Source: a virus (lineage: Duplodnaviria > Caudoviricetes). Taken from it: a stretch of 51,783 bases of DNA. Location: IMG/VR virus record IMGVR_UViG_3300031652_000006, positions 1 to 51,783 of that record; one strand, 5' to 3'. Made by a program: the position numbers and the translations under genes. Position 1 is the first letter of the stretch; each line of letters starts with the position of its first letter. The notes under the pieces are model-generated. The model made no database searches, was not told the origin of the DNA, and worked only from the letters and a program-made list of their open reading frames with translations. Shown one piece after another: positions 1,929 through 51,783 of this stretch.

Positions 1929-3944
1929 ATGCCTTCCGGTAGACCTAAGAAATTAAAGAGTATCGATAGTGTTGATAAAATAACGACACCATTAAAACAA
2001 AAAGAAATTATTCAATCGGTTGCAAATGCTTTAATAATACAAGATACTCCGGATTTAGATATTTGGTCAGACGAAAATCGTTTTCTACCGCCCGAGACTA
2101 GTTCTGAACATGGTAAATGGCGGACATCTAGATTTCCTTTTTTGCGTCGTGTCATGAAATGTTTATCCGCGAGTTCAATTGCGCGTGAGATTGTATTTGT
2201 TAAAGGCGGTCAGCTTGGCGGTACCGAATGTGCAATAAATTGGTTACTGCACAGTACTGTTTGTGAGCCAGGTCCATCGGCGTATATCCAGAAAACAATA
2301 GACGCGGTAAAAGCTTTTGTTAAACAAAAATTTCGTCCCGCTATTAGACACTGTAGTGCTGTTGCCTATACGCTTGGTGATAAGAAACCAACAGGTTATT
2401 CCAACGCTATTTTAGATATGGGTTATCCGGGAGGTTTTATTTCTTTCGGTCCGGCCAATTCATCCGACTTTTTAAAATCCAAATCACTGTTGCGCGGTGT
2501 GTTGGATGAAGAAGATCAATATGAATTGAGTATCGATAACCAGGGGTCACCTCGTTTAATGCTTAAAAAGAGGATGGCGAACTTTCCAAATTCAAAGTTA
2601 CTTAGGATAAGTACTCCTGTGTTGAAAGAGCTCTCCACAATTGAACCAGGTTTTCATGAAGGTTCAGAAGAGTTGTATTATGTTCCTTGCCCAAATTGCA
2701 ATCCTGACGCAAGTGATACGAAGTTTATGTTTGCTATTGAGCATGATAATATTAAATGGTCTAAAGAGATAAATCCAAAAACAAATGCACCTATTAGAGT
2801 GTGGTGCGAATGTCCTTCTTGTGGATATGAGATAGACGAGTCAAAGCACAAAACATGGATGTTAAAAAAAGGTGATTGGTTTTCAACAAAAAATTATGAC
2901 GACCCAGAAACACCACTATCTAGATACCGAGTTGGGGATGTTGAATTTCCTTCGTTTAGGCTACCTTCTTTTTATTCTCCGCTTGGCTTCTATTCTTGGT
3001 ATGACGCGGCTCATGATTTTTTAGAGTATAAAAGAACTGGTGATATTTCCTTATTGCAGGTTTATATCAATCAATGTTGCGCTGAAACTTTTTCATTAAC
3101 TGGTAGTGACATTGATCATACTGGCTTATATATGCGTAGAGAGTCTTATAGCGGCTCAAAGAATTTATTCGATGTTCCGAACGAAGGACTATGCTTAACA
3201 GCTGGTGTTGATGTTCAGGATGACCGCTTAGAAGTCGAGGTTGTAGCCTGGGGAATATTAGAGGAGTCTTGGTCTATAGATTACAAAGTATTACCTGGTG
3301 ATACAGCTTTGACAGGAAATATTTATGGTATGCTACCAAATGGTCAGCCAACAGTGTGGAGACTACTACATGATTATTTAAGCAAGCGATGGCGGCATGA
3401 GTCTGGTGTGGATATGCCGGTCGAAGTAACAATGATTGACTCCGGGGGTCATAGGTCTGATGAAGTTCATCAGTTTTGTAGGCCTCGTGAAAATTTGAGA
3501 ATATGGCCTATTAAAGGCCAAGGCGGTTGGGGAAATGGTTTGTGGAGACGTTCTACACGACGGCATGAAAAATATAAAACAATAGACTATCGTTTATTCG
3601 TTGACGAGTTAAAGTCCAAGCTTTACGCATTTCTTCGTATTCAAACACCTGGACCGGGGTATTGTCATTTTCCTAAGAAGGATGTTTACTCGGAAAAATA
3701 TTTTAAAGGGTTGACTTGTGAACGATTACAAACGCGCACAGTTCGAGGTCAACAACAATTGTATTGGGACACTCCGCCCGGTGCGCGTAACGAGCCATTA
3801 GACTGCCGAAACTATGCTTACGCCGCGTTTTCTGCATACGGTATAGATTTATTTAAAAGAGCATCAGTTGGATTGCAAAGTATATTTGGTAGCATGGCAC
3901 GGGTTAAGAAAATAAAATTACGCAAAGGTAGTAGAGGTTTGTAA
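1929..3944 (+). CDS. Terminase large subunit, lambda gpA family
   Basis: VKGGQLGGTE Walker A, VLDEED Walker B, ISTP, YYVPCPNC, AGVDVQDDRLE, IDSGG, RNEPLDC. Confidence 0.97.
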   Translation: MPSGRPKKLKSIDSVDKITTPLKQKEIIQSVANALIIQDTPDLDIWSDENRFLPPETSSEHGKWRTSRFPFLRRVMKCLSASSIAREIVFVKGGQLGGTECAINWLLHSTVCEPGPSAYIQKTIDAVKAFVKQKFRPAIRHCSAVAYTLGDKKPTGYSNAILDMGYPGGFISFGPANSSDFLKSKSLLRGVLDEEDQYELSIDNQGSPRLMLKKRMANFPNSKLLRISTPVLKELSTIEPGFHEGSEELYYVPCPNCNPDASDTKFMFAIEHDNIKWSKEINPKTNAPIRVWCECPSCGYEIDESKHKTWMLKKGDWFSTKNYDDPETPLSRYRVGDVEFPSFRLPSFYSPLGFYSWYDAAHDFLEYKRTGDISLLQVYINQCCAETFSLTGSDIDHTGLYMRRESYSGSKNLFDVPNEGLCLTAGVDVQDDRLEVEVVAWGILEESWSIDYKVLPGDTALTGNIYGMLPNGQPTVWRLLHDYLSKRWRHESGVDMPVEVTMIDSGGHRSDEVHQFCRPRENLRIWPIKGQGGWGNGLWRRSTRRHEKYKTIDYRLFVDELKSKLYAFLRIQTPGPGYCHFPKKDVYSEKYFKGLTCERLQTRTVRGQQQLYWDTPPGARNEPLDCRNYAYAAFSAYGIDLFKRASVGLQSIFGSMARVKKIKLRKGSRGL

Positions 3945-4783
3945 TGGCTATAAATGTATTAAGCTTATTTGATGGTATTAGTTGTGGACAGTTAGCTTTG
4001 CGGCGATCCAAAATAGCTGTTGCTAATTATTATGCTAGTGAAATTTGTAGTAAGTCTATTGCGTTGACTAAACGTAATTGGCCTAGCACAAAGTTCTTAG
4101 GGGATGTAAGAAAAATACGTAGTAATAGTAAAATAAAAATACATTTGTTATTGGGAGGTAGTCCTTGTCAAGGATTTAGTTTCGCAGGGAAAAATTTAAA
4201 TTTTAAAGATCCGCGTAGTAAATTATTTTTTCATTATGTACGTTTGCTAAGGGAATGTTTGCCTACATTTTTTTTGTTTGAGAATGTGCGTATGTCAAAA
4301 AAAAGTATAGATATTATAAATAAATATTTATGTGTTGAACCAATAGAGATCAATAGTAATTTAGTTAGTGCACAAAATAGAAAAAGATTATATTGGACTA
4401 ATATTCCTAATATTGAACAACCTAAAGATCGTAATATAAAATTAAAAGATATACTTGAAACCGACAATTTAAAATTACAAAACTACAAAGTACCTTATAC
4501 GAAAAGTAGAGTTGCTATGTGGGAAGGTAAATGTAAAAACATAACATACGAAGATAAATCTAGTTGTGTAACAACTAAGCAAGATCGTTGGTCTAACGCA
4601 GGTTTAATAGCTTTTGAAAATTTTTGTCGTTTTTTAACTACTATTGAGCTAGAGCGCTTACAAACTTTACCCGATAATTATACACGTATGTTTGGTTTAA
4701 GTGATTTAGATCGTCAAAAATTAATAGGAAATGCTTGGACTGTAGATATAATATCGCACATTTTAAATCATACTAAGAAATAA
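3944..4783 (+). CDS. DNA (cytosine-5) methyltransferase
   Basis: LSLFDGISCG, GGSPCQGFS, FENV, AQNRKRLYW, ERLQTLPD, IGNAW motifs. Confidence 0.95.
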   Translation: MAINVLSLFDGISCGQLALRRSKIAVANYYASEICSKSIALTKRNWPSTKFLGDVRKIRSNSKIKIHLLLGGSPCQGFSFAGKNLNFKDPRSKLFFHYVRLLRECLPTFFLFENVRMSKKSIDIINKYLCVEPIEINSNLVSAQNRKRLYWTNIPNIEQPKDRNIKLKDILETDNLKLQNYKVPYTKSRVAMWEGKCKNITYEDKSSCVTTKQDRWSNAGLIAFENFCRFLTTIELERLQTLPDNYTRMFGLSDLDRQKLIGNAWTVDIISHILNHTKK

Positions 4784-27360: not shown

Positions 27361-28311
27361 TTAGTGTATAATTTTGCCTGCGATTAGTCCTTTTAGGTTT
27401 GATCCAGTGAAAGGACATGGGCTTGGGTACGACGAGAAATCAATATGTGTAGCAATGTCTTGTAGATCACTTAATTGCTTATAAGAGAAACGACTGGTTT
27501 TTATATTATTTAAGCTAGGTACAATGACTTGTGCTCCTTTGTCAAAATCTATATGAGTTTGAAGTTTATTTTTTGTTATATACACATCACTATCTTTGTT
27601 TAAAAAATTTTTTATTTTTTTTAAGCTTTCGAAAAAATCTGATTTAATAGTAGTAGCTTTATTTATATTCGTTTTTATTTCATAGTCATCAGGCCAGCGT
27701 GCATCAATACAAGACGTTTTTAAAATACCTTTTTTATATAAAAAATATAAACAATTATCCTTTTCTGATATGAAAGATGGCGCTATGTTAATGCGTAATA
27801 AATTCATTACTGTTTGTGCTGGAATGATATAATTTTTAGTCAGTTTTAAATCAATAGCATGTTCAATAAAAACTAAGCTGTTAGTCGACAACATTTTTCC
27901 TTGTCGTAATAAAATTCCTGTAGCCCACTGATGCGCAGTATCAGTAGCCATAAATCTCGATAATTTTTTAATTATGTCTAGAAAGTTTTTTGGAACTTTT
28001 ATTTTTTTAAATTTTTTCGGTGGTTCGACAAAACATGAATCGTGTTTCGGTAAATTTATTTTTACGCCATTGCCAGTAGCAATAAATTTATTATTTGTTT
28101 CGTATAAGCTTTCTAATTGAGTAGCTTTATAAGCTTCAAAGAATAGTTTACTATTTACACAAATATCTTGCTTGTTGGAAAACAGATGCCAGGTTGACAT
28201 AATGCCATCTGTTGTAAAAATTATACCTTTGTGGGTACTAACTAAACTTGTGCTAGGTACTAATTGGGTTTCACTTGTAGTGCCACACACGAAATGTATT
28301 GCTTTATCCAT
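27361..28311 (-). CDS. DNA polymerase beta sliding clamp-like protein
   Basis: TDG, WATGILL..STNS, RWPD, PCPF..GLIAG; adjacent to Pol; start MDKAIHF assumed. Confidence 0.75.
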   Translation of the reverse strand: MDKAIHFVCGTTSETQLVPSTSLVSTHKGIIFTTDGIMSTWHLFSNKQDICVNSKLFFEAYKATQLESLYETNNKFIATGNGVKINLPKHDSCFVEPPKKFKKIKVPKNFLDIIKKLSRFMATDTAHQWATGILLRQGKMLSTNSLVFIEHAIDLKLTKNYIIPAQTVMNLLRINIAPSFISEKDNCLYFLYKKGILKTSCIDARWPDDYEIKTNINKATTIKSDFFESLKKIKNFLNKDSDVYITKNKLQTHIDFDKGAQVIVPSLNNIKTSRFSYKQLSDLQDIATHIDFSSYPSPCPFTGSNLKGLIAGKIIH

Positions 28312-28330
28312 AATTATTTTTTGAAACTGA

Positions 28331-28732
28331 TTACTTGGATGTGCGTTTTCGGAGCGCTGGTAGACTGTGTTCTTTGCGCCAGTTACACATGACCACACCG
28401 ATCAACGCATTTGAAGGATCAAATTCTGGATGCTTTACTCGAATAGAGTTTACTCGCGCAATGACAGCTTGTCTGTCTGGTTGCTCGCCCGTTTTTTCAT
28501 ACATCATGTCTAGCAATTTTCTCAATTTGTTAGACACGCTATTAGCTCTCGGTCCTCTTTTTGTCGTTTCTTTTTCAGCTACTTTCTCTTTGACTGCCTT
28601 TTTCTTAGCCGCGCTCTTTTTTTCTACCTTCTTCTTGGCAAGTGTTTTCTTAGCCGCTTTCTTATTGGTAGACGTCTTCTTGGCCACTTTTTTTTCAGCT
28701 ACATTTTTTTTCTTTGTTTTTTTTGCAGACAC
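28331..28732 (-). CDS. Basic protein with histone H1-like Lys/Ala-rich N-terminus
   Basis: Repeated KKAAKK/KKVAKK segments followed by a small helical domain. Confidence 0.7.
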   Translation of the reverse strand: MSAKKTKKKNVAEKKVAKKTSTNKKAAKKTLAKKKVEKKSAAKKKAVKEKVAEKETTKRGPRANSVSNKLRKLLDMMYEKTGEQPDRQAVIARVNSIRVKHPEFDPSNALIGVVMCNWRKEHSLPALRKRTSK

Positions 28733-29821: not shown

Positions 29822-29995
29822 CTAATCGTCTAGCCGCGCTAGACGCCAGTTTATATCTGATCTCGTTACTACTAACTGTTTCAATTCGTCACATGAAAAG
29901 AATGTTATAGGATCACATACGTTCTTTTCGTAGACCCAAAAATAATATTGATCGAAATCTACGTAGAAATTGCCACGCTCGAAGATTTTATTCAT
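29822..29995 (-). CDS. Hypothetical protein, 57 aa (MNKIFERGNFYVDFDQYYFW..); not in the ORF track
   Basis: SD AAGGAG; overlaps upstream stop; translated by hand. Confidence 0.7.
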   Translation of the reverse strand: MNKIFERGNFYVDFDQYYFWVYEKNVCDPITFFSCDELKQLVVTRSDINWRLARLDD

Positions 29996-30233
29996 CTGTA
30001 TCTCCTTCTTCTCGCCTTTTTGCCGCCATTTCCCACAGATGGCTGATTCTGACAGTCTCCGCCTTTTTTACTGGACAAGTGTCGCACTCGTCCCCGACTT
30101 TCCCGGGACACTCTCCACAGTTAAAATATTTTAATACGCTCTCTGCATGAGCGAGCGTGAACTCACCATCGTATTTACACATTGCTGCCCATAGTTCGCT
30201 CTTTGTCCATGTCCATGTTTTTTCCGTATTCAT
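29988..30233 (-). CDS. Cassette gene: small Cys-rich protein
   Basis: SD AAGGAG directly after hairpin repeat R1; two CxxC motifs. Confidence 0.8.
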   Translation of the reverse strand: MNTEKTWTWTKSELWAAMCKYDGEFTLAHAESVLKYFNCGECPGKVGDECDTCPVKKAETVRISHLWEMAAKRREEGDTDE

Positions 30234-30250
30234 CTCATCTCTCCTTTATA

Positions 30251-30310
30251 GCCGAATCGGCTGCCACTCCCGCCCGCCACAGAGTGACGGGCAGGGTGGG
30301 GGTCGGTTCA
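30251..30310 (-). repeat. Intergenic GC-rich hairpin repeat R1
   Basis: TGAACCGACCCCCACCCTGCCCGTCAC-TCT-GTGGCGGGCGGGAGTGGCAGCCGATTCGGC on the minus strand. Confidence 0.95.
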
Positions 30311-30610
30311 GACAAATAGTTTTTTCAATTTTTCTACTACCGCCTCGCCCCCATCTCCGATCCAATTGGCCAGGTCGCCCAAATCTTCCTCAGAACAACC
30401 GTCGGGACCAGCCCAGCACTCAGCGATCTCCTCAGCATAGTCAGGCAACTCATCAACTGACAGCTCACGCTGATAGAACTGCATGATTGTATTTCGATTC
30501 CAATCGTACTCCCCTACCTCAAAAGCTGGTATTTCATCGAGAGTACAGATCCACGTTGTACCTTCGGGAATTCCAGTAGAAACCAACCAATTTAGTATCA
30601 ATTTTGTCAC
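30308..30610 (-). CDS. Cassette gene: small acidic protein
   Basis: GTG 30610 after AAGGAG; stop overlaps R1. Confidence 0.8.
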   Translation of the reverse strand: MTKLILNWLVSTGIPEGTTWICTLDEIPAFEVGEYDWNRNTIMQFYQRELSVDELPDYAEEIAECWAGPDGCSEEDLGDLANWIGDGGEAVVEKLKKLFV

Positions 30611-30628
30611 TTTCTTTCTCCTTTTTCT

Positions 30629-30674
30629 GGCCGAATTGTCCGCCATGACTGGCGGGCAGGGTGGAGGTCGATTA
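30629..30674 (-). repeat. Hairpin repeat R2 (3' arm partly deleted)
   Basis: TAATCGACCTCCACCCTGCCCGCCAGTCATGGCGGACAATTCGGCC. Confidence 0.9.
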
Positions 30675-31250
30675 GTCGTGTGTAATCATGATTGCAATGT
30701 CGAAGGTATCATTTCCTTCGGCGTCTGTATTGCCATCCCCTGTCCATTCGGCTACAGCACCTACTGGAGCTATCAGCTCACGTATGCGATGCAACTCGAC
30801 ATCCGCATCGGGGTAGTCGTCACTATCCTCCGGCGATGCCTCTCCCGCTGACACCGCGAGTATGAGTCGGTCATCGTCGGATGAGGCAGAAAGATCATAT
30901 CCCTCTGCCTCGATTATGGATCGTACTCGATCCAACATATCAGATAGCAAAATAAATTCGATATACCCATATTTCGATATATATTCTGCTGTTCCTCTCG
31001 GCTTATGGCCGATCGCTTTCCAAACCTTCCCGTCATCCATCTGTATGATCGCTGTACCGCTGTACGATGGCACCGTTCCCCATCTTACGGTACGATACGA
31101 CCGATCATCTATTCCATTTAAGAGAGCCAACTCATATGTCGGCTCTTTGCTGCGCAAGTCGCTGGATAAAGATGTTGCACGTCGCACTAGGACGTCTAGC
31201 TGGTCAGCACTCATCCCACTTAGGTCGCATTCTTTCGCCATTTTACTCAT
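30672..31250 (-). CDS. Cassette gene: apparently two-domain protein with very acidic C-terminal half
   Basis: ATG 31250 after purine-rich RBS following R3; stop overlaps R2. Confidence 0.8.
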   Translation of the reverse strand: MSKMAKECDLSGMSADQLDVLVRRATSLSSDLRSKEPTYELALLNGIDDRSYRTVRWGTVPSYSGTAIIQMDDGKVWKAIGHKPRGTAEYISKYGYIEFILLSDMLDRVRSIIEAEGYDLSASSDDDRLILAVSAGEASPEDSDDYPDADVELHRIRELIAPVGAVAEWTGDGNTDAEGNDTFDIAIMITHD

Positions 31251-31266
31251 CTTTTTCTCTTTTTCT

Positions 31267-31326
31267 GGCCGAATCGGCCGCCATTCCCACCCGCCATGAC
31301 TGACGGGCAGGGTGGGGGTCGGTTCA
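31267..31326 (-). repeat. Hairpin repeat R3
   Basis: TGAACCGACCCCCACCCTGCCCGTCAGTCATGGCGGGTGGGAATGGCGGCCGATTCGGCC. Confidence 0.95.
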
Positions 31327-31617
31327 GCGATCTGGTCCCTCGTCACTTTCCCCGGACAACCACGCCGCGCATGCAGCTTCGGCATCCTCGGTCGACGGGT
31401 ATCTACCGAAGATCATATCACACCACATCCACCAGGCCCCCGCTTCGTCGTCTGTGTCGAGGTATAGGAGTCCAGGATCCTCGCTAGCTATCTCTTCTGC
31501 ATACTCTACACAGACATCATCTAGATGTCCCTCAGTGTCGTCTGCGTATTTGCAGAGCTTAGCGTTGGGGTTTGCGCGCTTGAATTCGATAGCCTCGTAC
31601 GCGATCAATTTTATCAT
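31324..31617 (-). CDS. Cassette gene: small, highly acidic protein
   Basis: ATG 31617 after AAGGAG; stop overlaps R3. Confidence 0.8.
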   Translation of the reverse strand: MIKLIAYEAIEFKRANPNAKLCKYADDTEGHLDDVCVEYAEEIASEDPGLLYLDTDDEAGAWWMWCDMIFGRYPSTEDAEAACAAWLSGESDEGPDR

Positions 31618-31634
31618 TTCTTTCTCCTTTACTT

Positions 31635-31696
31635 GGCCGAATCGGCCACCACTCCCGCCCACCACTGAGTGATAGGCAGGATGAGAGTCGATTCTA
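31635..31696 (-). repeat. Hairpin repeat R4
   Basis: TAGAATCGACTCTCATCCTGCCTATCAC-TCA-GTGGTGGGCGGGAGTGGTGGCCGATTCGGCC. Confidence 0.95.
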
Positions 31697-31867
31697 GTTA
31701 CTCGGTCGGCTTTGCTCTATTTCCTTGCCGAGCGCTTCAGCACACATTCTTCCGAGTTCGCCTCTCTCTTTGGTGGAGAGTTCGCGCATCTCGCTCATGG
31801 TGACTTTTCGGCCACCGTCTGCCTCGAAAAATTCTTTGATCGCTTTTACATTTGTTGTTTTTTCCAT
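31694..31867 (-). CDS. Cassette gene: 57-aa protein (MEKTTNVKAIKEFFEADGGRKVTMSEMRELS..); not in the ORF track
   Basis: SD GAGG; stop TAG overlaps R4; translated by hand. Confidence 0.8.
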   Translation of the reverse strand: MEKTTNVKAIKEFFEADGGRKVTMSEMRELSTKERGELGRMCAEALGKEIEQSRPSN

Positions 31868-31897
31868 TGCTCTTTCCTCTGTTTTTTTGCTGCTTGA

Positions 31898-31943
31898 TTG
31901 CAGCTCATATTATTAAGTATAGGGGCTAAATTAATAAGCGCAA
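31898..31943 (-). promoter_or_regulatory. Putative early promoter, copy 2 (TTGCGC-16-TATACT)
   Basis: ~46-bp near-identical duplicate of 32304-32349; sigma70-like boxes; A-tract upstream. Confidence 0.75.
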
Positions 31944-31980
31944 GCCTTTTTTAATGAAATTTATAGATCGCAATTTTTTA

Positions 31981-32038
31981 CCGTAAATCGGCCACCATTC
32001 CCATCCGCCACTGGGTGGCGGGCAGGGTTGTGGGTCTA
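31981..32038 (-). repeat. Hairpin repeat R5 (divergent)
   Basis: TAGACCCACAACCCTGCCCGCCAC-CCA-GTGGCGGATGGGAATGGTGGCCGATTTACGG. Confidence 0.9.
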
Positions 32039-32278
32039 AGATATATAGCGACCTGCATTTTTTGGATCGCTTTTAACGATCCGCATACACAGGGGACAAG
32101 GTGTCATCTGTCCAAGATCTGGATGTATCCATGGTCTCACACGTAGGCGATCAGCCCACGATTGATCGTAAGAACCAACCGGAGCACCACAGATAGTACC
32201 CCTACAACGATTTGACTTGTCGCGGTACCACATGTTACCGCGTGCTGGTTTCAGCTGTTTTCTGATATGAAAAATCAT
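32036..32278 (-). CDS. Cassette gene: small basic protein with possible Zn ligands (TICG..CPLC)
   Basis: ATG 32278; stop overlaps R5. Confidence 0.7.
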   Translation of the reverse strand: MIFHIRKQLKPARGNMWYRDKSNRCRGTICGAPVGSYDQSWADRLRVRPWIHPDLGQMTPCPLCMRIVKSDPKNAGRYIS

Positions 32279-32303
32279 TTCTTTCTTCTTTCTCGCTGCT
32301 TTG

Positions 32304-32349
32304 TTGCAGCTCATATTATTAAGTATGGGGACTAAATTAATAAGCGCAA
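32304..32349 (-). promoter_or_regulatory. Putative early promoter, copy 1 (TTGCGC-16-CATACT)
   Basis: Duplicate of 31898-31943. Confidence 0.7.
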
Positions 32350-39344: not shown

Positions 39345-39551
39345 TTAAACCAAGCACAAGTTAATATACCTCATTAAAAGTACAAGTAATATCACCACAA
39401 ATAATGTTAGTGTCAATATCCCCTCAGCTCTTTTCAAAAATTCGTTTATGCTATCCAGTTTATCTGGTTTATTCTTCATCGTCGCCCCCATCAAGCAAGT
39501 ACTCTTTAACGTCTTTATATTTAACCCAATCGCCATCATTAATATCATCAT
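39345..39551 (-). CDS. Small membrane protein (true start probably MKNKPDK)
   Basis: C-terminal hydrophobic helix. Confidence 0.5.
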   Translation of the reverse strand: MMILMMAIGLNIKTLKSTCLMGATMKNKPDKLDSINEFLKRAEGILTLTLFVVILLVLLMRYINLCLV

Positions 39552-39792
39552 ATTTGTCGCTACACTCTAGACCTGAGTAAGTGAGTTCATATCGTTGCAC
39601 TTTTTTGGGCGGGCACGCTGGGCCAAGCCACCTGAAAAACCAAGGGGTTTTTTCTATTGCGCTAAGCGTACATAATTGAGGGTAACAAAGCAATTTTTGT
39701 TCACTGTTAAAATTAACATATTGTATTACAGCTTCTCCATTGTTTGTTCCATACCACCAGTGTCCAGGTTTATCTGGTCTATTCTGCATCAT
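39469..39792 (-). CDS. Hypothetical protein, 'RPDKPGxWW' family
   Basis: RPDKPGHWWY..WLGPACPPKKVQRY..WVKYKDVKEYL. Confidence 0.8.
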   Translation of the reverse strand: MMQNRPDKPGHWWYGTNNGEAVIQYVNFNSEQKLLCYPQLCTLSAIEKTPWFFRWLGPACPPKKVQRYELTYSGLECSDKYDDINDGDWVKYKDVKEYLLDGGDDEE

Positions 39793-39890
39793 CGTCTCCG
39801 ATCAGATACTCTTTTACGTCGTCGTAACGTATCCATGTTCTCTATTTCTGTATCACTTTGTCGATTCATCATACCATACTCAACTTAGTG

Positions 39891-40178
39891 TTAGTCATCG
39901 ATGTCCATCCAGAGTAACAAGGCAGCGTCGACAACTTCCGGTATTCTTGTCGTTATAGGACCTTGCTGAAGAACTTGATACCTGTCAACCTTCTTCGACG
40001 GATGCGCCTGGCCGAGCCATTCGCCGAAATCTGACGAACATTCGAATACCGAAACACGAACAGGACGATGATTCTTAATTACGCATAATTCACAAGAATA
40101 TCCATCAAAAATATCAGCGATTCTTTCCGTCCCATAAGATGTTTTGTACCACCAATACCCTGGCTTATCCGGTCTCAT
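39891..40178 (-). CDS. Hypothetical protein, 'RPDKPGxWW' family; C-terminus disrupted
   Basis: ATG 40178 after GGAGG; out-of-frame WIRYDDVKEYL remnant near 39779-39840. Confidence 0.75.
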   Translation of the reverse strand: MRPDKPGYWWYKTSYGTERIADIFDGYSCELCVIKNHRPVRVSVFECSSDFGEWLGQAHPSKKVDRYQVLQQGPITTRIPEVVDAALLLWMDIDD

Positions 40179-40378
40179 CACTTCACCTCCGTGAATGTTT
40201 CGCGCCAGTTGATAACCTTGGCATGGTGGATCGTATTCCATTTTGTATTCCTCGGAACGGGCATTTCCTAATTCCAATCATCACGTAGTCGGTACGATGC
40301 AAGCCCATTCACATCAACAGCCGCATGAGATGCATCGTCTGGCACATCGACCTCAATCATTATTTTCACGGTTTTCAT
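40178..40378 (-). pseudogene. 'YxAVD...NW' family gene with a single in-frame TAG (pseudogene or read-through)
   Basis: MKTVKIMIEVDVPDDASHAAVDVNG..WN*EMP..INWRETFTEVK; SD AAGGAG; TAG at 40268-40270. Confidence 0.8.
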
Positions 40379-44250: not shown

Positions 44251-44688
44251 ATGAGACCAACATTTAACGATATTTATATGAAAATGGCTGAATTGATCGC
44301 TATGCGATCAACATGCAGTAGGAGACAAGTCGGTTGTATTATTACTACGTTTGATAATACAAGGGTACTGTCGGTTGGGTATAACGGAAACGCAAAAGGA
44401 CTTCCTAATCAATGTGATAATCCGACAGAACATGGAAAGTGTGGATGTATACATGCTGAAGAAAATGCGTTAATCGCGTGTTCGGAACTTGCAATAACCC
44501 CTAAGAAAGTGTTTGTGACGGTCTTTCCATGCGTGATGTGTTTGAAGAAAATTGTTCAGTTACAAAATGTAAAGGAAATTCACTTTTTGGATGACTATTA
44601 TGGAAATAATTTTACTTTTGAAACAAATATATTGCTACTAAAACATACATACAGTGATTATTATCATAATGATAAAAATAAGAAATAA
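44251..44688 (+). CDS. dCMP deaminase
   Basis: RSTC..VG, GYNG, HAEENA, PCVMC. Confidence 0.95.
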   Translation: MRPTFNDIYMKMAELIAMRSTCSRRQVGCIITTFDNTRVLSVGYNGNAKGLPNQCDNPTEHGKCGCIHAEENALIACSELAITPKKVFVTVFPCVMCLKKIVQLQNVKEIHFLDDYYGNNFTFETNILLLKHTYSDYYHNDKNKK

Positions 44689-47091: not shown

Positions 47092-47346
47092 ATGAAATCA
47101 ATGAAGTATATAATAGGTGTTTTGATAATGACGAGTTTTATCGGTACGTACACATTTTTTAATAGTACCGATAATCAAATACCAAACGAAATTCCAAACA
47201 CTATGGTTTTGTCTGATTGTGAAAATTGTTTAGATGCAAGTACAGACGCGGACACAGATACAGATATTGACGTCGATACAGATACAGATGTCGACACGGA
47301 CACAGACGCCGATACAGATACGGATACTGATACGGATGCAGATTAA
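47092..47346 (+). CDS. Exported or membrane-anchored peptide with (DT/DA/DV)n acidic tail
   Basis: N-terminal hydrophobic segment; 6-bp degenerate repeats ~47233-47343. Confidence 0.75.
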   Translation: MKSMKYIIGVLIMTSFIGTYTFFNSTDNQIPNEIPNTMVLSDCENCLDASTDADTDTDIDVDTDTDVDTDTDADTDTDTDTDAD

Positions 47347-49117: not shown

Positions 49118-49648
49118 GTGATGAAAAACTCGATATTTTGTTTTATGTTATTAGCAAGCATTTTGTTTGGTTGCTTAGAAGCAGAAACTATATATATTGA
49201 TAAAAATTGTAACATGGATGAGATACAAGCGATATTTCGAGCGGTCGATAAAATTAATGCTGTCTTAGGGTACAAAGAAGTTGCGGTTGTCGGCAGTAAA
49301 AAGGTTGATTACGAAATTGAAGCTAATGAAACAAACGGTGTATCGATGTTCATGTGCATTTCCAGCAACTCAGATGGCGCACATTTTCCTAAGTTTGATA
49401 TTAGTGTTGGACGTAACTGGCGAGATGATATTTATGTACGCTCGGATATAACAACGTACGGTGATTATGGTATTCGAGGTTTTGAGTCAGTGGCTATGCA
49501 TGAGCTGATGCACTTTATCGGTGTTGGTGGTGATGAACACACAAATGATTCAAACGATGTGATTAGTAAGTATTTTAATCCAAGTACTATGCCGATTGAA
49601 TACTCTGACACTGATAAAGAACTAATAAAGAAATATTCAAGGAGATGA
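49118..49648 (+). CDS. Zinc metalloprotease lipoprotein (matrixin/metzincin-like)
   Basis: Lipobox LFGC; HELMHFIGVGGDEH. Confidence 0.8.
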   Translation: MMKNSIFCFMLLASILFGCLEAETIYIDKNCNMDEIQAIFRAVDKINAVLGYKEVAVVGSKKVDYEIEANETNGVSMFMCISSNSDGAHFPKFDISVGRNWRDDIYVRSDITTYGDYGIRGFESVAMHELMHFIGVGGDEHTNDSNDVISKYFNPSTMPIEYSDTDKELIKKYSRR

Positions 49649-49651
49649 TAA

Positions 49652-50134
49652 ATGAATATAACAGTAAGGGTTAATCCATTTACTAATGAGGTGATTTGTT
49701 GCCAGCGATTTAGTTTTTTGATAGAGGCTAATTTGCAGAAAGCGGATTTGCGATATGTGGATTTGCAAAACGCGAATTTGCGCTATGCGAATTTGCAGGA
49801 AACAGATTTGCGGTGTGCGGATTTAAGATACTCAGATTTGCAGGAAACGTATTTGAAATACGTGAATTTGCAGGAAGCGAATTTATCGCATGTGAACTTT
49901 GGACAATCATATTTGCAAAAAGCGAATTTAAAGCATGCTATTTTGAGACAAGCGGATTTGTGTCACGCTAATTTGCAGTACGCGGATTTGCGTCACGCTG
50001 ATTTGCGTTATGCTGATTTGCGTTACGCTGATTTGCGTCACGCTAATTTGCGTCACGCTGATTTGCGTCACGCTGATTTGCGTTACGCTGATTTGAGTCA
50101 CATTGATTTGAGTCACACATCGATAAAGAATTAA
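49652..50134 (+). CDS. Pentapeptide-repeat protein
   Basis: A(D/N)Lxx repeats; 15-bp DNA units. Confidence 0.95.
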   Translation: MNITVRVNPFTNEVICCQRFSFLIEANLQKADLRYVDLQNANLRYANLQETDLRCADLRYSDLQETYLKYVNLQEANLSHVNFGQSYLQKANLKHAILRQADLCHANLQYADLRHADLRYADLRYADLRHANLRHADLRHADLRYADLSHIDLSHTSIKN

Positions 50135-50160
50135 TAAAGAAATATTCGAGGAGATAATAA

Positions 50161-50862
50161 ATGAATATAACAATTAAAGTTAATCCGTTTACTAACAAGG
50201 TTATTTGTTGTCAGCAGTTTGATACTTTGCGGAAAGCTGATTTACGGCGCGCGAATTTGCAAGGCGCGAATTTGTGGCACGCGAATTTGCAAGACGCGTA
50301 TTTGTGGCACGCGAATTTGCAAGACGCGAATTTGCAAGACGCGGATTTGCAAGGCGCGAATTTGCAAGACGCGGATTTGCAAGGCGCGGATTTGCAAGAC
50401 GCGGATTTGCAAGGCGCGAATTTGTGGCACGCGAATTTGCAAGACGCGAATTTGCGGCATGCGAATTTGCAAGACGCGTATTTGTGGCACGCGAATTTGC
50501 AAGACGCGTATTTGTGGCACGCGAATTTGCAAGGCGCGAATTTGCAAGACGCGGATTTGCAAGGCGCGAATTTGTGGCACGCGAATTTGCAAGGCGCGAA
50601 TTTGCGGCATGCGAATTTGCAAGGCGCGAATTTGCAAGACGCGGATTTGCAAGGCGCGAATTTGGATTTTTCTTCTGGTATATCATTATGGTGTGGAGGT
50701 CAGAGTATTAAATTAGACACGAAGCAATTGAAACAAATTCTCTCGCATACCTTTTCTATGCAATCGAACGATGCTGAGTATTTGCGGTTGAGAGAAGAAG
50801 CGAGAAAATTTTGTTTTGAGTCACATATAGCACAGCATATTGACTGGCTCAAAGAAAGGTAA
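50161..50862 (+). CDS. Pentapeptide-repeat protein with C-terminal LWCGG domain
   Basis: A(N/D/Y)L(QG/QD/WH/RH) repeats. Confidence 0.95.
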   Translation: MNITIKVNPFTNKVICCQQFDTLRKADLRRANLQGANLWHANLQDAYLWHANLQDANLQDADLQGANLQDADLQGADLQDADLQGANLWHANLQDANLRHANLQDAYLWHANLQDAYLWHANLQGANLQDADLQGANLWHANLQGANLRHANLQGANLQDADLQGANLDFSSGISLWCGGQSIKLDTKQLKQILSHTFSMQSNDAEYLRLREEARKFCFESHIAQHIDWLKER

Positions 50863-50868
50863 TTCAAA

Positions 50869-51465
50869 ATGTTTTTTAAAGATTATATTGAAGAAGCCGT
50901 TAAGACCGAGTCGAATGATTTTGATGCCATCGGTGGACGCCTCAATAACGAATACGTCGTCAGAATGTTGCACGCTGGTTTGGGTATGGTTACAGAAACT
51001 AGTGAATTGTTTGCTGCAATAGATAAAATGGACTTAGTAAATATAAGAGAGGAGTTAGGTGACTTGTTCTGGTATATAGCTATAGCTTATGATTCTATTA
51101 ACACGGAATGTGAGTTCACCTCTAAATGCTATCCATATGTTCCTTTGTCAAATTGGTGGAAAGGTTGTGGAGAGTATAAAATGGAGCATTTGCTACTACG
51201 CAGTATAAGTGAATTCATCGACTCTATTAAGAAGAATATATTTTATGGTAAACCTTTAGAAAGAAAAGAAGTACTATATACGTTACAAAGTATATTTAAT
51301 AAGACTTTTTGGATTATGGGTTCGTTTGATTGCATAGACTTAGATAGTGTATTGACGGACAACATTAAGAAGCTTCAACTAAATAGGTATGATGGATCAT
51401 TTAGTGAGGAGCGTGCGTTGAATCGTGATGTTGAGAATGAGCTTAGTCATATGAAGGAGAAGTAA
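50869..51465 (+). CDS. MazG-like nucleotide pyrophosphohydrolase
   Basis: LG..TE..E, EELGDLFWY, NIKKL..RY. Confidence 0.88.
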   Translation: MFFKDYIEEAVKTESNDFDAIGGRLNNEYVVRMLHAGLGMVTETSELFAAIDKMDLVNIREELGDLFWYIAIAYDSINTECEFTSKCYPYVPLSNWWKGCGEYKMEHLLLRSISEFIDSIKKNIFYGKPLERKEVLYTLQSIFNKTFWIMGSFDCIDLDSVLTDNIKKLQLNRYDGSFSEERALNRDVENELSHMKEK

Positions 51466-51770: not shown

Positions 51771-51783
51771 GGTCACGGCAAAG
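51771..51783. repeat. Terminal direct repeat, right copy
   Basis: Identical to 1-13. Confidence 0.95.

Follow-up and report, generated by a model that had tools for sequence, protein, structure and literature searches.

We report a repeated gene-junction element of about 60 nt in a 51,783-nt stretch of tailed-virus DNA (Duplodnaviria; Caudoviricetes; positions 1 to 51,783 of IMG/VR record IMGVR_UViG_3300031652_000006), hereafter called the window. This is a real, conserved element, and there is good comparative evidence for cassette exchange at it across unrelated phages. The explanation that we regard as best, with somewhat better than even confidence, is a promoter-less spacer of two hairpins, extending from a stop codon to the next ribosome-binding site (RBS), that likely serves in four phage backbones both as a joint for homologous exchange and as a site for host RNase III. 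A preliminary description of the region had presented it as a candidate undescribed system, which was an overstatement: gene shuffling at repeated stem-loops, known as PeSLs (promoter-early stem-loops), has been published (PMC2839356, PMC4122927). The repeat reads as a promoter-less variant of the PeSL principle with a predicted role in RNA.

The hairpin array and its relatives

On the minus strand the array runs in the order promoter-like leader, A, R5, leader, B, R4, C, R3, D, R2, E, R1, F, where single letters are cassette genes and R1–R5 are hairpin copies. The features of the window are as follows.

32279..32349, minus strand: promoter-like leader Pa, TTG..-16 nt-(T/C)ATACT, 5-bp GC hairpin, purine-rich RBS; repeat D8
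32036..32278, minus strand: cassette gene A, 80 aa, no family; not in the array of contig L026
31980..32038, minus strand: hairpin copy R5, degenerate 5' end; body and putative downstream promoter 94% identical to L026 over 139 nt
31868..31943, minus strand: promoter-like leader Pb, 5-bp hairpin and RBS
31694..31867, minus strand: cassette gene B, 57 aa, no family
31635..31696, minus strand: hairpin copy R4, with a G-C to A-T compensatory pair
31324..31617, minus strand: cassette gene C, 97 aa; acidic N-terminal domain of ~55 aa, present in all four backbones
31267..31326, minus strand: hairpin copy R3
30672..31250, minus strand: cassette gene D, 192 aa, no family; six homologs, 57–88% identity
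30629..30674, minus strand: hairpin copy R2, internally deleted, weak fold
30308..30610, minus strand: cassette gene E, 100 aa, no family
30250..30310, minus strand: hairpin copy R1
29988..30233, minus strand: cassette gene F, 81 aa; also behind a repeat in backbone-B contig L074
29614..29805, minus strand: T-family gene, 63 aa, outside the block first described; homologs behind full repeats in L026 and L068
34432..36790, minus strand: Cas4-like exonuclease, DUF669 single-stranded DNA-binding protein (SSB), and Sak4-like annealing protein; candidate recombination machinery with a putative role at the repeats

All five palindromes of the preliminary description are real and lie on the minus strand, and its account of the layout held: every copy overlaps the stop codon of the upstream open reading frame (ORF; 5/5), R1–R4 end before a purine-rich RBS, and downstream of R5 come an AT-rich stretch and a promoter-like repeat. 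The block is indeed richer in GC than the rest (49.0 vs. 37.2%) and is the GC maximum of the genome. R2 is short by ~14 nt, the deletion having apparently occurred between two short direct repeats, and searches with a hidden Markov model and a covariance model found no copy in the window beyond R1–R5. The promoter-like leader, taken in the preliminary description simply for a promoter, is a second, PeSL-like type of joint, with two copies in the window and five in L026; each has a −35/−10-like pair and an RBS, with a 5-bp GC hairpin between them in most copies. We infer that this leader acts as a promoter; a sigma-70 scan does not call it. The scan found no promoter within any hairpin copy of the window, nor are these copies called as terminators, and, as noted at the outset, R1–R4 have no U-tract after the stem. 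Four downstream genes of the window have no other promoter-like element.

The search for relatives with a covariance model that the preliminary description had proposed was run with a model of 21 copies (R2, two degenerate copies, and a copy found later in L104 were left out). Over 20 sources, it identified 22 full copies (at least 45 bits) and three degenerate ones (~21 bits) in 10 phage-type contigs, nine of which are additional to the window and were found by pattern scans and a search with gene C. The contigs fall into four unrelated backbones, listed here with the gene order of each array.

Backbone A: window, A-B-C-D-E-F; L026, n177-C-T-n58-X-T-n88-T'. Flanks 95–98% identical, arrays different
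Backbone B: L067, C-X-Y-Z-W; L066, C-U-Z-W; L074, C-X-(F fused to Z)-W; L033 and, assigned by gene order, L104, other genes
Backbone C: L068, V-T-C-U-Y-Z-W-T. Complete with terminal repeats; array beside ERF and exoVIII
Backbone D: L035, C-n86-n78-n74-n90; L078, C-n156. AT-rich fragments

Terminase and portal of the window are 22 and 21% identical, respectively, to those of backbone B, and seven core proteins of the window have no match in C or in the examined 28 kb of D. Backbones B and C have an ERF/exonuclease module and several other genes in common. The array of backbone B lies between the terminase and a head-tail gene, on the opposite strand. Two further phages (L079 and L073) contain gene C with a copy of the repeat that is only truncated or vestigial. 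In the three complete relatives that were searched, the copies are confined to the array.

No match to the repeat was found in 50,697 phage records (INPHARED) or 72,556 plasmid records (PLSDB), and there is no full copy among 26 matches of one exact 21-mer pattern in GTDB, from which the host may be missing. Among 37 metagenome matches, full copies occur in three contigs (L026, L033, L035), the rest matching part of the repeat. A two-arm viral scan produced 33 matches, five of them true, with L104 the only new one; viral scans seeded with the helicase and gene D yielded no relatives, and L003, L122, and L126, which matched in part or by chance, were dropped. The suggested comparison with Rfam gave no family match: the only match in the window is a chance one (E 1.7) outside the repeats, and there are none in four relatives. 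A literature search, made in a collection with few subscription journals and confined to main texts, returned no account of such a repeat.

Probable exchange of genes at the repeats

Gene content and order between the copies differ in every array. The preliminary description had named invariant content in relatives as the observation that would speak against exchange; relatives were instead found to carry the same repeat with different genes in a different order, which supports its proposal of gene swapping. The U genes of backbones B and C are ~99% identical (four differences in 369 nt), gene X has 88% identity between A and B over the stretch bounded by the repeats, and gene F has 82% nucleotide identity between the window and L074, starting at the first base of the repeat. 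The gene pool is probably larger than the arrays found, since a repeat variant directly precedes the T-family gene of the window in sequencing run X4, and in L073, by eye, a gene start follows a repeat-derived RBS.

Two cassettes have features of their own. The U cassette (L066 5030–5398, L068 6049–6417) contains a 122-aa ORF that overlaps a 60-aa ORF in another frame. An extra gene of L078 (4140–4690), not found in L035, starts at a collapsed repeat, in which the 5' end is joined to the small hairpin and the large hairpin is gone.

Comparison of the copies argues against a fixed crossover point. The repeats on both sides of gene U differ in their inner stems; R5 and the copy L026b lie behind different genes and have one sequence from the left arm to the end of the putative downstream promoter; L067b and L074b have the same loop and the same upstream gene X, with different genes downstream. 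A fixed crossover base would tie the repeat body to one neighbor gene, and there are counter-examples both ways. Copies of the same array are 80% alike, those of the same backbone 82%, and those of different backbones 79% (up to 98%). When the compared stretch is set to 70 nt, so that it takes in the start of the RBS, an exact match of 23 nt or longer is found in 37 of 183 pairs drawn from different backbones. Phage annealases recombine short, diverged sequences, the minimal segment for Red-beta being 23–27 bp (PMC3945230). Such proteins are encoded here: Sak4 in the window, ERF with exoVIII in backbone C, and homologs of the latter two at 64–88% in backbone B. Because there is no fixed crossover, because stretches of identity link the backbones, and because Sak4 or ERF is present, homologous exchange with gene conversion would be the simplest reading, and the repeat is likely a homology joint for the swapping of single genes by phage annealing proteins. 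During co-infection, or in an infected lysogen, Sak4 or ERF would quite probably anneal two copies, with the crossover at variable points inside them; single genes would thereby be swapped, deleted, or added, and repeat copies mixed.

The ends of shared segments show how far this applies. From 28 shared segments we obtained 56 ends, four of which lie at the edge of the analyzed region, leaving 52 informative ends from pairs that are not independent. For more than one-half of them (28/52), each of the two genomes has a joint at that point (13 hairpin/hairpin, 15 promoter leader or mixed), and for 14 only one genome does; joints cover ~23% of the arrays. Several observations weigh against the repeats as crossover sites. 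Ten of the 52 ends lie within genes in both genomes, and in L074 (6562–6957) genes F and Z form one in-frame fusion, which places this exchange within coding sequence; on these two grounds, the repeats are not the only exchange route. Among the five copies of the window, an exact stretch of 23 nt or more is common to just 1 of 10 pairs. In permutation tests, the left outer arm went with the gene upstream (p = 0.019) and the right inner arm with the one downstream (p = 0.022), but this linkage of repeat halves is weak, both p-values being uncorrected and taken from 12 tests. No excised circle or deletion joint was found in the contigs, which drop rare forms, of run X1, a possible source of the window; joints in runs X2 and X3 reflect L026-like strains.

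Fold of the repeat and its possible role in RNA

When folded as mRNA, R1, R3, and R4 are distinct from shuffled sequences (z = −4.6, −3.5, and −3.9), whereas R5 (z = −1.8) and R2 (z = −1.1) are not. The statistics that follow come from the alignment of 21 copies, with the structure drawn from the same sequences. Paired cells make up 90.4%, vs. 88.0% in shuffled alignments and 31–52% in slid controls. There are 10 double-change cells, a number reached in 0/500 shuffles, although this control ignores the relatedness of the copies. Credible double changes are confined to the 11-bp inner stem (pairs 25–38, 27–36, 26–37); the G-C to A-T change in R4 that had been taken as compensatory is real and corresponds to pair 25–38. 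Conservation of the inner stem through G-U-compatible changes was likewise borne out, with 48 G-U vs. 9 A-C cells on the mRNA strand. A bulged A at the foot of the inner stem (A46) is invariant (21/21), as are pairs A16-U48 and A28-U35; the right triplet is ATT in 21/21 copies, and the left one reads AAC in 14 copies, AAT in 5.

The covarying inner stem of 11 bp extends to ~15 bp with the next four pairs and to 23 pairs in the long form. Since the 3' end forms a small hairpin of its own, the element is, in these models, better described as two hairpins. This 4–6-bp hairpin is predicted in 14/23 copies in context and in 17/23 when the footprint of a terminating ribosome is blocked, while the long outer pairing wins in 5/23. 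It keeps its pairing with loops of 3 to 6 nt, also stands alone before RBSs, and resembles the promoter-leader hairpin in size, energy, and position (both ~−8.5 kcal/mol). A cut in the message immediately 5' of the small hairpin would account for the same hairpin-RBS head on each cistron. At the other end, the upstream stop codon overlaps or abuts the 5' AAY in 22/23 copies, L068c being located 5 nt after the stop.

Two other roles were considered and set aside. A stretch resembling the consensus of an extracytoplasmic function (ECF) sigma factor (GAAC-N16-CGTC) was rejected as a promoter, as the would-be −10 box covaries with its stem partner. A role as a cruciform or double-stranded DNA palindrome is disfavored by the strand-specific mismatches.

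RNase III requires a helix of ~11 bp, and bulges favor single-strand cuts that leave stabilizing 3' hairpins (PMC3867540). The inner stem provides a helix of this length on the mRNA strand, and RNA processing would fit both the geometry and the covariation. We tentatively propose, at a little under even chances, that the 11-bp inner helix, ending at the bulge, is nicked in its 3' arm by host RNase III. The upstream cistron would then keep a protective 3' hairpin, and the downstream cistron would be headed by a 5-bp hairpin and an RBS, like the promoter-led genes; the repeat would be kept because cutting gives separately stabilized messages.

Against processing by RNase III, apart from the relatedness of the copies, stands the outer stem, which has no credible double changes (those at 4–60 and 9–55 look like alignment slips) and on the mRNA strand has 9 G-U vs. 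51 A-C cells. Better folding on the mRNA strand, as first claimed, therefore stands for the inner stem and fails for the whole element, which folds better on that strand in only two of the five window copies and in 6/21 copies of the family as RNA (10/21 as DNA). The stem is also GC-rich. An RNase III site is expected to have A-U or U-A at position 2 of its proximal box and no G-C at position 4. The invariant A16-U48 and the near-invariant U20-G43 flank the bulge, and the register of the proximal box follows a numbering that we assume, on which position 4 of the box is presumably C-G. A G-C pair at this position blocks cleavage by E. coli RNase III (PMC3867540).

A strong rival to RNase III cutting, albeit one that we consider unlikely, retains the homology joint and leaves the hairpin uncut on the RNA, where it would act as a leaky attenuator or as a barrier to 3' exonucleases like the repetitive extragenic palindromic (REP) elements, grading expression along the operon, and may also stall ribosomes at the adjacent stop codon. 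The GC-rich inner helix begins ~10–14 nt past the stop codon, and REP hairpins stabilize upstream mRNA and affect translation when located <15 nt from the stop (PMC12306157). PeSL stem-loops are effective terminators (PMC2839356), and R5 and its twin in L026 close a unit just before a new putative promoter. The missing U-tracts of R1–R4 fit such a role poorly, and with four downstream window genes dependent on read-through for want of another promoter-like element, termination must be weak; moreover, the invariant bulged A and the separate RBS-side hairpin are left unexplained. That the large hairpin has no present function is less probable still. It would then be a passenger, spread by exchange and conversion at any shared 60-mer next to an RBS, with only the RBS-side part mattering. 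The persistence of deleted, collapsed, and half copies (R2, L078, L035 4631–4697, L079) agrees with this, as do the stand-alone small hairpins in L067, L066, L068, and L074, and homogenization alone can account for sequence conservation. It does not account for the double changes at 25–38 and 27–36, which keep the inner stem paired, or for the tolerance of G-U over A-C there; together these point to selection on the fold of the mRNA strand.

Also improbable, in our estimation, is that the repeat, as a single-stranded DNA (ssDNA) hairpin, is acted on in trans by a site-specific recombinase; the arrays would then resemble CALIN (clusters of attC sites lacking integron integrases) carried by several phages. 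This recombinase could be an integron-type integrase of the host whose core specificity has changed, or another enzyme. In attC sites, the R'' core is RYYYAAC, and the AAC/GTT triplets pair. The R' core is GTTRRRY, and virulent phages carry attC arrays that are recombined by IntI1 (PMC9892861). The repeat and these phage-borne arrays share the layout of one gene per palindrome, a site that starts at the stop codon, an extrahelical base, and the lack of a phage integrase (PMC9892861). The invariant ATT, the position of the stop at AAY, and the better pairing of the outer stem on the non-coding strand add to the likeness. On the other hand, as had been stated, the RYYYAAC and GTTRRRY cores occur in 0/21 copies in either orientation; the core triplets are missing as well, and the extra base is an A on the 3' arm of the coding strand. 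The repeat follows neither the upstream nor the downstream gene in all cases and has no single crossover point, and no host chromosomal array appears among the GTDB matches.

The search for a recombinase likewise argues against this possibility. The initial report of no integrase in the window was confirmed: among all 87 ORFs of at least 45 aa that were retained after removal of those nested in others or opposite to the expected coding strand, Pfam or PHROG scans found no integrase, transposase, HUH protein, or reverse transcriptase, and no tyrosine recombinase was found in the window or in the complete genome of backbone C. Two complete members of backbone B encode a tyrosine recombinase of 405–416 aa ~16 kb from the array, which reads as an ordinary phage integrase, and the Y1 transposase (PF01797) is absent from 4/4 phage genomes, the window included. 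Similarly improbable is the broader proposal that phages of one uncultured host share a cassette standard in which the hairpin is a non-attC ssDNA site for a host or trans-acting enzyme; if true, unrelated lytic and temperate phages would draw early genes from one integron-like pool without an integrase of their own.

Known systems, cassette proteins, and genome context

Our preferred reading, a homology joint that would also be cut by RNase III, is closest to PeSLs, in which recombination between repeated intergenic modules of a stem-loop and a Shine-Dalgarno (SD) sequence shuffles single phage genes, including ORFans, and also makes mini-circles; PeSL cassettes occur in the T4-type phages RB49/phi1, PST, and nt-1 (PMC2839356, PMC4122927). 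Both systems consist of repeated stop-to-start modules with a stem-loop and an SD that flank small genes of no known function, and in both, single genes are gained, lost, or replaced at the modules with variable crossover points. The second repeat of the window (promoter-like pair, 5-bp hairpin, RBS) fits the PeSL design. In contrast, the 60-nt repeat has no sigma-70-type −35/−10 promoter inside the module; it is GC-rich, with a long covarying stem, an invariant bulge, and a second hairpin; it spans unrelated small-phage backbones rather than one T4 subgroup; and mini-circles were not seen in our material, which consists of contigs only. The repeat works like a PeSL but, having no promoter, is not a member of that class. 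It departs from PeSLs in lacking a promoter, in its long form with two hairpins, and in being common to phage backbones that are unrelated.

The early-region RNase III sites of T7 and the early sites of SPO1/SP82 are likewise intercistronic helices of about two turns with an interruption, located between small early genes. Those sites have been tested and are not known to be near-identical repeats that act as exchange joints between unrelated phages; cleavage of the repeat, unlike theirs, is only predicted from sequence. REP elements and their composites (bacterial interspersed mosaic elements, BIMEs) occur in many dispersed chromosomal copies, often with a Y1 (RAYT) gene. A REP is also a GC-rich imperfect palindrome just past a stop codon with possible mRNA stabilization, whereas the repeat was found in no GTDB chromosome, forms one array per phage, has no Y1/RAYT, and includes the downstream RBS leader (PMC12306157).

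The six cassette genes of the window have no PHROG or Pfam family, and PADLOC gave no match for 25 array proteins. The 55-aa domain of gene C has 903 representatives at E 0.001 or better and no named family; its model has a pLDDT (predicted local distance difference test) of 89, and Foldseek returned only one uncharacterized marine viral protein and nothing in the PDB. This domain (window 31327–31617; proteins P0014–P0162) frequently occurs in fusion with others, among them pentapeptide repeats (P0018) and, by eye, head-protease- or scaffold-like proteins (P0060, P0068). Weak sequence matches to catalase (E 0.005 or higher) were taken as chance. Given their position and size, our guess is that the cassette proteins serve host takeover or counter-defense.

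The window is a 51.8-kb myovirus-like genome with a lambda-type terminase and portal and a Mu-like tail, whose replication and recombination genes comprise polA, an SF2 helicase, the Cas4-like exonuclease, SSB, Sak4, and RusA. Positions 1–13 and 51771–51783 are identical over exactly 13 nt, just upstream of the small terminase gene; we read them as a possible cos-type end and the genome as probably complete; CheckV gives a completeness of 76%. The closest cultured terminases are only ~35% identical to that of the window, and the sequencing runs carrying its DNA are labeled salt marsh or marsh metagenomes.

Several other loci recur among these phages or stand out in the window. Two paralogous small genes (39472–40277), one with 84% nucleotide identity over ~200 nt to backbones B and C, form a second accessory region common to these backbones, without a hairpin. 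A lipoprotein-like protein with a weak M10 metallopeptidase match (window 49118–49648, L002 719–1249) is common to backbones A and C at 39% identity; a lipoprotein search gave no informative names. Pentapeptide-repeat genes recur (window 49652–50862; L026 ~2270–2870 and ~1380–1650; L035 ~170–690), one of those in L026 being inserted directly after the array. The window also encodes a processivity-clamp-like protein (27361–28398), a dCMP deaminase (44251–44688) that is 59% identical to one in L073, a MazG-like pyrophosphatase (50869–51465), a C5 methyltransferase (3944–4783), and a small membrane-anchored protein with an Asp-Thr repeat tail (47092–47346).

The PeSL idea, framed for promoter cassettes among T4 relatives, is here carried over to a joint that lacks a promoter and is shared across lineages. 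The repeat offers a concrete route, defined at the sequence level, along which unrelated members of one phage community would trade early accessory genes, and both temperate and integrase-less phages take part in the exchange. It also marks more than 20 small uncharacterized proteins as a swappable early pool, and thus as a place to seek functions in host takeover or counter-defense.

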